64,000 bases of DNA, taken from the NCBI RefSeq assembly GCF_024521635.1, contig NW_026250412.1, positions 868,001-932,000 of the forward strand. Direction: 5' to 3'. The stretch is from Tricharina praecox. Its lineage: Eukaryota. A model generated the notes under the pieces. It worked only from the letters and a program-made list of their open reading frames with translations, was not told the DNA's origin and did not search any database. Below, in pieces: positions 55,363 through 59,004 of this stretch. Position 1 is the first letter of the stretch, and every line of letters starts with the position of its first letter. The position numbers and the translations under genes were made by a program.

Positions 55363-57624
55363 ATGAACGGCGATAGCTACTCTTCGAGGGGCGGTGGTAA
55401 GTCTGTTCTTTGGCAATGTCTGAGACCGTATGCTAATTGCGGCGCCGGCGTTCAGACAGATACGGCGGTCACTCGTCCACCCGTGAATACCACGTACGTT
55501 GCCGCACCCGAAATCTCTGAATAGAGCGATGGCTGACATACGTCCGCAGACTTCTGATCGTCGCAGGGACAGGGACAGGGGGGACCACCACGAGCGCCCC
55601 GAACGCACCGAACGCACCGAACGCCCCGAACGCCCCGAACGCCCCGAACGCACCGAGCGCCCTGAACGCGGAGACCGTGGAGACCGTGGAGATCGTGGGG
55701 ACCGCCGTCGCGAACGCACCCGGTCTCCTGGCCACCGCAGATCCCGACGCGAGGAGTTCTATGGAGGCGATGCCCCTCCTGCCGCTACTGGTGGAGATCG
55801 CGATAGATACAGGGAGCGTGACGACCGATACGGAGGACGCGACAGAGGTGACAGGGGCGGCGACAGGGAGTTCGAGCGCGAGCGCGGAGACCGTAGACGC
55901 GGGGGTGGTGGTGGTGACAGACGTGGTGACCGTAGTGGCAGACACGAGGACCCGCGGGGTGCGAGGGATCCGTTTTCTCGCAGACGTTCGGCTACCCCGC
56001 CACCGAAGAGAAAGGAGCCTACCCCCGACTTGACTGATGTAGCGCCCATCACCGAAAGGAAGAGGCGGATGACCATGTGGGATATCAAGCCTCAGGGCTA
56101 TGAGAATGTCACTTCCGAACAAGCGAAGCTGTCAGGTGGGTTTTCCGACATCGGTAGCTTGTTTGCGTTGATATGATATCTAATGTTGTATAGGCATGTT
56201 CCCACTCCCTGGCGCACCGAGACAGGCTCCTATGGATCCCACTAGGCTCCACGCGTTTATGACGCAGCCAAACAGCGTCGCCACGGCCTCCGCCCTGAAA
56301 CCGACGAACTCGCGCCAGGCGAAGCGTCTCCTTGTCAGCGGCGTTCCCCAAGGCACTGACGAAGAAACCCTTCTGCAGTTTTTCAACCAGCTTCTTGCCT
56401 CTCTTAACGTCACTACAGGTGGTCCTGATCCTGTGACCCTGGTACAGCTTAACTCGGACAAGTCGTTGGGTATGGTTGAGTTCAAGAACACCCTCGATAC
56501 TACAGTGTGCTTGGCTTTCTCTGGGATCGAGTTTGGCGGATCGAAGTTGGAGATCAGACGGCCGAAAGACTACATCGTGCCGCTCGTTGTTGACGATGGC
56601 ACTGAGACTGAGCCCGGCCAGATCAGCAGCAATGTTCCGGATACACCAAACAAGATCCTCGTATCGAGAATACCCGAGTATCTTCAGGATGAACAGGTGA
56701 TTGAGCTGCTCAAGAGTTTTGGAGAACTAAAGGCGTTTGTGCTTGTCAAGGAATCCACAGATGAAGTTTCGAAGGTATTATTTTCCCTACATACTAACCT
56801 ACCACTACATACCTTTGACTTACCCCCCTTTGCCCCTCGTTCAAGAAAACTACAATCCTTTTTGCTCGCACATTACAAGTCAAAGGTATTCTTGCAAAAT
56901 AGGATACAGTTATTAACCTAAGCCTCCCGGACTTTCCGCCTGCGGATTGAATTTTTAGGGCATTGCTTTCTGCGAATACCAGGATCCCGCGGCTACCGAC
57001 ATCGCCGTTGAGGGCCTTAATAATATGGAGCTTGGAGACAGCTCTCTGCGGGTTCAGCGTGCATCCATTGGAATGAAGCAGGCTGCCGGAGTCGAGATGG
57101 GTGTTAACGCCATGGCGATGATGGCTGGAACCACCAGTGCCGACTTGGAAGCGAGTAGGGTTCTGCAGTTGCTCAACATGGTGACACCCGAGGAGTTGAT
57201 GGACCCCGACGAGTACGAGGGTAAGTTACTGCATTTCCTGCTACATTTGGAAGTGAGTACTGATCGGAATTACAGAAATCTGCGAGGATATCAAGGATGA
57301 GTGCCATAAGTTTGGTAAACTTGTGGATCTCAAGGTTCCCCGACCTAGTGGCGGTTCGAGACAGACAGCCGGTGTCGGAAAGGTTTGTTCCCATCGTCAC
57401 TGAATTTTCAGGGTGTGTTACTGACATCAGTCGATTGTAGATTTTCGTCCGCTTCGAGACTCTTGAGTCGGCCGCCACGGCACTCAAGTCCCTCGCCGGC
57501 CGGAAGTTCGCCGACAGGACTGTCGTGTGCACTTTCTTCTCCGAGGTATGTTCACACGCTGCTTCTCGCTAATGCATATAATCTAACACCGTACCAGGAA
57601 AACTACGAAGTCGGTGCGTTCTAA
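55363..57624 (+). CDS. U2AF2: Splicing factor U2AF large subunit (U2AF65/Prp2/Mud2 family), 8 exons: 55363-55396, 55456-55493, 55550-56135, 56194-56774, 56959-57220, 57276-57382, 57441-57545, 57598-57624
   Basis: R/D/E-rich N-terminus, ULM (RKRRMTMWDIKPQGYE), RRM1 (SRQAKRL...IRRPKDY), RRM2 (GIAFCEY), UHM (VLQLLNMVTPEEL...GRKFADRTV). All seven introns are GT-AG and keep the frame. Confidence 0.94.
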
Positions 57625-58025
57625 GTACGGACAGGTGGGACAGGGGCAGCGGTAGCGATAGTGCGAAGGCGAACGAGTTAATCGACCGAATAAAACGTTT
57701 TGTATTGCGAAGAACATGAGTGGTGTGTGCTAAGGAGGGAAGGGGATGGATGGACGCGGACGCCCAGGGACGTGTATGATGTTCTTTTTTTTTTGCCAGT
57801 TCGTTGATGTGTTCACCTACCTATCTGCCTTTCTTGTCTTGTTTGATGATGTCGTAACCGCTTTAGTACGCGTGACTGAGAGAAAGTTAGTCTCCTGTTT
57901 GTTTGCATTACTTCAGTTCTGCAATTGTACGTAGCTCGCCAATGTATCCCATGTTCACACAATCTCACTCGTCATTGGCATAGGTACATGTGATGGATCG
58001 ATAATGTGTATGTGCATATTCTCCA

Positions 58026-58152: not shown

Positions 58153-58493
58153 GTGCATACCCTCCATCCCTCCCACAAGACAGGCACACCCTTTGATGGC
58201 TTTCAAGTGCAAGTGCTTGGGCTGTTCGAGGGCGGGTCGGCCGGGAGGTGGGTAGTCCAGGAGCGAGAGTGAATCAGGACAGTGATGGTGAGGTCATATA
58301 ATTTGCGGAGCAACTCACAGTCGGTTCAGCGACTCACAGCGTCGGTCCAGCAACTCACACAGTCGGCAAGGCCACTCACACATTTTACGGAGCTACTCGA
58401 AACAGTGAGAACAAGATTGCATACCTGTCTGCAGTAAACTGGTCACAGTTGAAATCTTCTCCACTGGGACCCAGCGGACCTGTGTGGGAGCGG

Positions 58494-58592
58494 AGGAGAG
58501 CAGAGGAGAACAGAGGAGAGCAGAGCAGAGGAGAGCAGAGCAGAGGAGAGCAGAGGAGAGCAGAGCAGACCAGGGCAGAGGAGAGGAGAGCA
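58494..58592. repeat. (GAGCA/GAG)n compound microsatellite
   Basis: Directly visible. Confidence 0.85.
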
Positions 58593-59004
58593 GGGGGCTG
58601 GTTCCTCCGCTGAAGGTGCATGAACGGCACAAACCAGTCAAAACAAGACGGCATACCTATGATGGCATACCTATGATGGTGGTACACCAGCCACAATTGA
58701 AATCCACTTCACGGCAGTCCAGCGAACTTGTGGGAGAGCAGAGGGAGATCAGAGGGGGATCGGGGCAGCGGGGGCGGATCCTGCCGGAGAAGGTGCATGA
58801 AACGCAGCTACCTACCTACCGGATCCGGGCATCGGTAAGTACCAGTGTATGCCCTTCCTTCTAATTGGATGGCCAACACAGGGGGTACTCACTAGGTTTG
58901 AGAAAGGTGGATGGGTGTGTAGACCTTGAGGGACAGAACATCTGCCCACTTGTGACTCAGTGGGAACAGTGAGTCAGGTATGGACTGGGGGGGTTGTCCT
59001 CCTG

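Follow-up and report, generated by a model that had tools for sequence, protein, structure and literature searches.

U2AF65, the large subunit of U2AF, is a core factor that marks 3' splice sites. We analysed a stretch of 64,000 nucleotides (nt) from Tricharina praecox (contig NW_026250412.1, positions 868,001 to 932,000 of the forward strand; hereafter the window), in which a U2AF65 gene carries seven introns. The fourth is about three times as long as the others, and the locus raises the question of what this extra length does. A preliminary description of the window had proposed that intron 4 hides a poison exon, by which the splicing factor would limit its own expression. We found that intron 4 is removed in one piece, that retention was seen for this intron and no other of the gene, and that its weak splice signals are conserved in relatives. 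A poison cassette exon is not supported. With our confidence evenly divided, we favour an intron built to splice inefficiently, whose retention would be regulatory and might make the gene self-limiting.

The U2AF65 gene and the signals of intron 4

By its sequence, the gene is a Pezizales orthologue of the U2AF large subunit (U2AF65/Prp2). The nearest named homologue is a protein of Wilcoxina mikolae (Pezizales, Pyronemataceae) with 89% identity, and homologues carry the names 'splicing factor U2AF subunit' and '65 kDa subunit'. Exon 4 matches Pfam RRM_1 (E 4.3e-08); exon 5 scores 16.8 bits against the same family, under the cut-off of 20.7. The joint of exon 4 to exon 5 (56774 to 56959) rebuilds ..DEVSK/GIAFCEYQD.., including the RNP1 motif of RRM2, and homologues P0002 and P0008 align over this junction (..SKGIAFCEY..). 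The junctions of all seven introns are backed by spliced transcript contigs (runs X1 and X2). The gene and the elements of intron 4 are as follows.

55363..57625, + strand: U2AF65 (U2AF large subunit) gene; its eight coding exons, separated by seven introns, encode 579 aa
56775..56958, + strand: intron 4, 184 nt, phase 0, between RRM2 beta-strands and just ahead of RNP1 (GIAFCEY)
56769..56778, + strand: D1, region of the real 5' splice site, TCGAAG/GTAT (TCGAAGGTAT); the donor GTATTA has no G at +5
56792..56798, + strand: early branch box TACTAAC, perfect, with 22 nt between donor and branch A; putative decoy or docking site
56809..56821, + strand: X, a putative anti-donor element (ATACCTTTGACTT), complementary to D1 and to D2
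56842..56846, + strand: CAAGA, containing the first AG after TACTAAC; the internal acceptor of the poison-exon proposal
56877..56889, + strand: D2, donor mimic AAGTCAAAG/GTAT (whole arm AAGTCAAAGGTAT), with GT at 56886; 3' arm of a predicted 13-bp helix with X and the second donor of the poison-exon proposal
56906..56918, + strand: candidate real branch region ACAGTTATTAACC, with branch A 56916 in the non-consensus box TTAAC, within the conserved ACAG-YTATTAACC
56919..56921, + strand: TAA, first in-frame stop upon retention, 48 codons past exon 4; it closes the open reading frame 56184..56921

The signals on which the poison exon had been built are present. The introns measure, in order, 59, 56, 58, 184, 55, 58 and 52 nt, which agrees with the claim of one 184-nt intron among six of 52-59 nt. 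TACTAAC at 56792-56798 is the sole CTRAY of intron 4, and the first AG after it lies at 56844-56845; the intervening 45 nt are free of AG and 76% C/T. The claimed second donor AAG/GTATTC (GT at 56886) is indeed a near-copy of the real AAG/GTATTA (56775). Translation also bore out that inclusion of the 40 nt from 56846 to 56885 shifts the frame and leads to a TGA at 57009-57011.

The signals that intron 4 appears to use are of another kind. No YTRAY other than the TTAAC box occurs in the 3' half of intron 4, and the next usable AG past this box is the real 3' splice site; TTAAC, with its branch A at 56916, is probably the real branch box. The ACAG of this block presumably extends its pairing to U2 small nuclear RNA. 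The internal acceptor is of the AAG type, and all seven real acceptors of the gene are YAG. In the Fusarium intron statistics that we drew on, +5G is found in 93%, CTRAY in 91%, TTRAY in 4%, YAG in 94% and RAG in 3.5% (PMC5677156). Measured against these figures, the real signals of intron 4 are all minority forms.

TACTAAC occurs 9 times on both strands of the window, compared with 3.1 expected. Seven of the eight other sites have an AG 7-19 nt downstream, against 48 nt for the early box of intron 4. Two of them have a recognisable donor, at a distance of 48-49 nt, against 22 nt in intron 4. As expected, most copies, those with an AG 7-19 nt downstream, would fit branch sites of short introns. 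We also observed a GTTTGT hexamer in exon 4 (56735-56740), with the same letters as the intron 6 donor. It lies 62 nt upstream of the early branch A, a more normal spacing than the 22 nt of the real donor, and is unused as a donor in the transcript contigs.

An origin of intron 4 by tandem duplication was ruled out: its halves are unlike, with a local alignment score of 20 against 17.3 +/- 3.3 in shuffles.

Transcript evidence

The transcript data are assembled contigs, from which rare isoforms drop out. X1 and X2, runs from separate studies, both bore the mRNA. Two other runs, X3 and X4, are soil metatranscriptomes; they contain short conserved exon pieces only, partly those of a relative, and are uninformative on the intron. 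Both X1 and X2 gave near-full-length spliced mRNA with all seven introns gone, and in both, intron 4 was removed as a single 184-nt joint, 56774 to 56959. A relative's contig from the metagenome collection (L013) is fully spliced and cDNA-like, and its exon 4 is joined straight to exon 5. Intron 4 is removed in one piece. The preliminary description had named three junctions as informative, and this joint is one of them. The other two, 56774 to 56846 and 56885 to 56959, were found in no contig of X1 or X2, assemblies that lose rare variants.

A second contig of run X1, 221 nt long, follows the genome without a break over 56756-56976 and keeps intron 4. Its depth was 196 against 656.5 for the spliced contig, or about 23% of the sum; such contig depths are crude and silent on regulation. 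The depth bins across the other six introns correspond exactly to the share of their exonic bases. Since these six introns carry no intronic depth, retention is specific to intron 4, and carry-over of genomic DNA is unlikely.

Conservation of intron 4 in relatives

We scanned metagenome contigs and obtained 80 loci, in 79 of which exon 4 and exon 5 could both be placed. The counts below refer to distinct, cleanly bordered introns, 9 long and 31 short, after incomplete exon matches, introns of less than 30 nt and duplicate sequences were dropped. A long intron is found at the same phase-0 site in five species (exon-4 protein identity 78-100%), with these lengths:

Window: 184 nt
L006: 180 nt
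L001/L002: 178 nt
L003-L005: 166 nt
L007-L012: 152 nt

Loci with at most 59% exon-4 identity have an intron of 46-78 nt or none, without exception. In the outgroup loci, a rough tblastn chain, which is a crude method, found no further intron of clearly greater length within the RRM-coding region of U2AF65. Judged by these sequences, the long form of intron 4 is confined to one Pezizales clade.

The long introns share a set of signals. None of the 9 has a G at donor +5, while all 31 short introns do. A CTRAY with its branch A in the first 25 nt was found in 9/9 long introns compared with 4/31 short ones, and the branch A of this early CTAAY lies at intron position 15-23 in all nine. Short introns have a CTRAY in 26/31 cases, and there the distance between branch and 3' end is 9-13 nt; none was found in the remaining 5/31. 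No long intron has a CTRAY near its 3' end. The block ACAG-YTATTAACC is common to all five long-intron species, 29-46 nt from the 3' site, and CAAGA is invariant over 7 aligned sequences from these species. GTATTC, the second donor, occurs in four of the five, and the bases before it drift (AAG, AGG, AGA). Retention leads to an early in-frame stop in 5/5 species, after 48, 12, 14, 6 and 4 codons. Because they recur in relatives, the signals of intron 4 are more than chance. In further species, the tails of ORF-type (open reading frame) predictions P0003-P0017 fit an early CTAAC, and the tail of P0004 also fits X and D2; both fits are back-inferred from amino acids, not DNA.

Overall identity was compared between intron 4 and the other six introns. 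Intron 4 scored 0.82 against L001 (other six 0.58-0.78), 0.54 against L003 (0.36-0.51) and 0.37 against L007 (0.17-0.48). The excess conservation of intron 4 is modest and is centred on X, D2 and the branch block.

These comparisons bear on the poison exon. In this proposal, the internal acceptor at 56845 and the donor at 56886 would define a 40-nt frameshifting exon, or the acceptor would act as an alternative 3' site; inclusion would lead to nonsense-mediated decay (NMD) and would be promoted by high U2AF65/SF1. Its ingredients are partly conserved: early CTAAY, tract and CAAG are present in 5/5 species and GTATTC in 4/5. The would-be cassette, from the first AG to GTATTC, shifts the frame in three of four species (40 nt in the window, 41 in L006, 40 in L001). 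The internal acceptor alone would give an early stop in 4/5 species, and in L003/L004 a stop only after 53 codons. NMD targets are also scarce at steady state, and a poison exon has been proposed for human U2AF2, at low confidence (PMC6547761), and shown for its paralogue RBM39 (PMC10477243). However, joints at 56846 and 56885 are absent from both mRNA-bearing runs, and the frameshift is not kept across relatives: the cassette of L003/L004 is 36 nt, in frame and free of stops, and L007 has no GTATTC, hence no second donor. The would-be donor of L001 (AGA/GTATTC) has A at -1 and no +5G. Between the donor and the early branch A there are 22 nt (15 nt in L007), whereas this distance is 48-49 nt in the other TACTAAC introns of the window. 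The AAG follows the early branch A by 33-48 nt across species (48 nt in the window), against 9-13 nt between branch and 3' end in the short orthologues with CTRAY. AAG acceptors belong to a class of about 3.5% in the Fusarium figures (PMC5677156), and in the predicted fold the second donor is base-paired. We consider the poison exon improbable.

Use of the second donor alone does add 111 nt in frame in the window, as had been described. The resulting 37-aa insert was rejected as a conserved product, for only the window keeps its frame open: it meets a stop in L001 and runs out of frame in L006 and L003. What holds of the earlier idea is that a special intron may limit the expression of this splicing factor: its length is conserved, its donor is weak and it is the sole intron seen retained. 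The specific cassette mechanism is not supported.

The same stretch of sequence could also serve two-step removal, in which AAAG/GTATTC (56882-56891) is a ratchet point, or one half of the intron is spliced first, with no trace in the mRNA. The AG at 56884-85 directly abuts the GT at 56886 in the window and L003. Each half starts donor-like and carries a branch-like box, and the final product would by definition be the observed single joint. Yet the juxtaposition of AG and GT is found in the window and L003 only; they are apart in L006 (AAGG/GT) and L001 (AGAG/T..), and the site is missing in L007. The 45 nt upstream of 56885 contain no branch-like box, and the first half would need a branch box only 22 nt from its donor. 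No intermediate contig was seen, and the retained contig is colinear over the entire intron. Such removal is very improbable.

Complementary elements and the predicted fold

Pairings were assessed with 300 shuffles, by duplex energy and by the length of the Watson-Crick run. X (56809-56821) and D2 (56877-56889) form a perfect 13-bp helix in the window and in L003, and 0/300 shuffles reached a run of 13. RNAalifold, applied to four species (five sequences), returned the X:D2 helix as the consensus, and 95.3% of the cells in the X:D2 alignment are paired. Because D2 copies D1, X is also complementary to the real donor: 56809-56818 of X can pair with D1 (56769-56778) over 10 bp, one of them G.U. 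The energy of this D1:X duplex in the window, -12.2 kcal/mol, was matched by 2/300 shuffles. In the four X-bearing species, 2, 17, 16 and 4 of 300 shuffles reached the energy, and in L007 40/300 did, with no clear excess. None of the other six donors of the gene was distinct in this type of pairing (82-219/300). The window and L003, whose introns are 54% identical overall, share the 19-nt block CATACCTTTGACTTACCCC without a difference, and the core CCTTTGACTT of X is invariant in four species.

We computed the probabilities of both pairings with the core helices enforced, and these values vary with the length of the flanks:

Window: P(X:D1) 0.44, P(X:D2) 0.26
L006: P(X:D1) 0.27, P(X:D2) 0.43
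L001: P(X:D1) 0.62, P(X:D2) 0.00
L003: P(X:D1) 0.15, P(X:D2) 0.81

In these predictions, the X:D1 and X:D2 states appear close in weight.

Two further pairings were observed. CAAGAAAAC (56842-56850; CAAGA and a purine run) is complementary to GTATTCTTG (56886-56894) over 9 nt (89%), and this pair is also found in L001. It shares 4 nt with the X:D2 helix and so competes with it. In L007, the donor region TAAGGTAGATAG (2576-2587) is complementary to the branch block CTATTAACCTTA (2696-2707) over 12 nt (83%). The L007 lineage, which has neither X nor D2, may thus have an alternative donor pairing, to the conserved branch block.

An inverted repeat of 13 bp around 55 nt recalls terminal repeats, and conserved blocks stand out within an otherwise fast-evolving intron. 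The extra length could on these grounds host an independent element, for instance an old insertion, a small RNA, or a platform that binds proteins for purposes other than splicing. However, an Rfam cmscan of 56600-57100 with E up to 10 gave 3 chance-level matches, the best with E 3.6 and all far under the gathering score. The blocks that are conserved match splice-signal look-alikes and the sequence complementary to the real donor, the arms enclose an unconserved loop, and no further copy of an arm exists in the window at 0-1 mismatch. An independent element is hardly to be expected here. Two specific candidates were rejected on the same searches: a riboswitch or known structured RNA, for which there was no curated family match, and an origin from a repeated element such as a miniature inverted-repeat transposable element, for which the arm search in the window gave no support.

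Retention versus constitutive splicing

In the retention reading that we favour, five conserved features would jointly slow the splicing of intron 4: the missing +5G, a TTAAC box far from the 3' site, the roughly threefold length, a TACTAAC near the donor, and the complementary set. The TACTAAC would sit too near the donor for use with that donor. With X paired to D1, the real donor would be hidden from U1. With X paired to D2 instead, the real donor would be freed and 55 nt zipped out, which would bring the donor-branch distance to about 60 nt in effect. An intron 4 left unspliced would place the TAA at 56919-56921 inside RRM2 and yield an unproductive mRNA. The balance of X:D1 and X:D2 would then set the fraction of productive mRNA, and binding of SF1/U2AF to the early TACTAAC and the C/T tract may tune this fraction as well, which would make the gene self-limiting. 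On the predicted fold, the 'second donor' looks like an arm of the fold and the 'internal acceptor' like a loop element, neither of them an exon border. We infer all three parts of this scheme, namely the pairing switch, the decoy role of TACTAAC and the feedback via the gene's own product. Three marks of regulated retention were found at this locus: an intron-specific retained transcript (X1), a conserved stop upon retention, and conserved sub-optimal signals.

The main rival is an ordinary constitutive long intron. Here X:D2 would be a zipper stem that shortens the donor-branch span and hides cryptic sites, the conserved motifs would secure accuracy, and the retained contig would be pre-mRNA or noise. 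Zipper stems have been defined as helices of at least 6 bp between donor and branch point with linkers of 42-85 nt (PMC12350175). Taking the inferred branch A 56916, the 13 bp of X:D2 with linkers of 34 + 26 nt (about 60 nt) fall within this definition, as described for S. cerevisiae, and would shorten the effective distance. C/T tracts lie 5' of the branch point in 83% of cases in the Fusarium figures, the usual fungal placement, and the tract of intron 4 is located just there (PMC5677156). Fully spliced mRNA is also the dominant product in each of X1 and X2. In contrast, a constitutive intron leaves unexplained why +5G is lost in all long introns while 31/31 short orthologues keep it, and why 9/9 long introns keep a perfect branch box at a distance of 15-23 nt from the donor. 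A plain zipper stem could covary, but the arms here are conserved in sequence and copy the donor: one arm is a copy of the real donor and the other also pairs with it, unlike known zipper stems. Nor does the rival account for retention in a single intron out of seven, with roughly a quarter of the signal. We regard constitutive splicing as possible, on the unlikely side.

Several results weigh against regulated retention. Run X2 had no contig that retains intron 4, so that retention was seen in X1 only; the difference between the two runs hints at regulation, but is suggestive at most. The L007 lineage has kept the long intron though X and D2 are both absent, and at this distance the overall conservation of intron 4 is no higher than that of the other introns. 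Neither the 13 X:D2 pairs nor the 10 X:D1 pairs hold a compensatory change (0/13 and 0/10), and X:D2 has no covariation support as a zipper stem. The structural support thus consists of complementarity and conservation in a sample of only four species, of which three are closely related. The X:D2 Watson-Crick run is just 7 bp in L006 and in L001, a length that 176 and 171 of 300 shuffles matched, and the stability of the whole-intron fold is unremarkable (z -0.98). It can be argued that invariance without covariation is what a three-way constraint predicts: coding and splicing would fix D1, D1 would fix X, and X would fix D2.

Comparison with known systems

Fungal thiamine pyrophosphate (TPP) riboswitch introns and the autoregulation of yeast RPL30 are switches that work by splice-site occlusion. 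As in the switch proposed here, alternative RNA pairings set the productive fraction, a likeness that we use as an analogy only. Unlike the riboswitch introns, the U2AF65 intron has no ligand aptamer, as judged by the lack of an Rfam family match. In C. elegans, uaf-1 has a nuclear-retained exon.

The closest fungal parallel that we compared is srp2, the Neurospora orthologue of SRSF5, whose unusually long retained intron is an NMD target according to Lareau & Brenner 2015 (PMC4379411). In Neurospora and Aspergillus, srp2 resembles U2AF65 in being a splicing-factor gene of filamentous fungi with one intron far over the genome norm, and its unproductive form, too, arises by retention with an in-frame stop and not by a cassette exon. 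The two differ in several respects. srp2 encodes a serine/arginine-rich (SR) protein, not U2AF65, and its sensitivity to NMD has been shown, whereas the U2AF65 case is known from sequence and contigs. The Aspergillus srp2 intron is, in the account given there, not notably conserved (PMC4379411), while intron 4 of U2AF65 is conserved in blocks. The long form in U2AF65 is furthermore restricted to one Pezizales clade.

Within the U2AF65 family, RBM39 (PMC10477243) and the human U2AF2 candidate (PMC6547761) are alike in that a 3'-splice-site factor limits itself by unproductive splicing. They act by cassette inclusion with observed junctions, whereas the U2AF65 contigs have none and the cassette shifts the frame inconsistently. 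A tandem 5'-splice-site-like enhancer in U11/U12-65K, described as a sensor of the U11 small nuclear ribonucleoprotein (PMC5473595), offers an analogy only, with decoy copies of splice sites in an RNA-processing gene.

Full-text literature searches returned no description of fungal U2AF65 autoregulation; the accounts that they did return concern U2AF1, U2AF2 and RBM39 of animals and, in fungi, the SR protein srp2. In the text covered of the survey of fungal structured RNAs by Li & Breaker, the U2AF term has 0 occurrences (PMC5640933).

Other features of the gene and its surroundings

Exon 3 (55591-55704) contains two 9-nt tandem arrays, CGAACGCCC x8.8 and GGAGACCGT x3.9. They code for ERPERTERP... 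and GDRGDR... repeats, and the N-terminal domain is therefore RD/RE-rich and not a classical arginine/serine (RS) domain. Two more tandem arrays lie downstream of U2AF65, one at 58309-58382 with a 21-nt unit (x3.6) and one at 58488-58593 with a 10/15/25-nt unit of the GAGCAGAG type.

Implications

The most specific form of our proposal is that intron 4 is a sensor of the 3'-splice-site machinery. A decoy made up of UACUAAC, the C/T tract that holds X, and CAAG would capture SF1-U2AF, and competition among D1, X and D2 would turn its occupancy into access to the donor. The level of U2AF65 in this Pezizales clade would then be steadied by retention, not by a poison exon. We think it unlikely that this full scheme is correct. 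For the reading of raw sequence, the locus is a caution that internal splice sites which look convincing may turn out to be parts of a fold, or decoys. If the proposal is true, intron 4 would provide a 184-nt test bed for splicing efficiency under intron definition, as it is set by weak signals, competing RNA helices and a decoy branch site.

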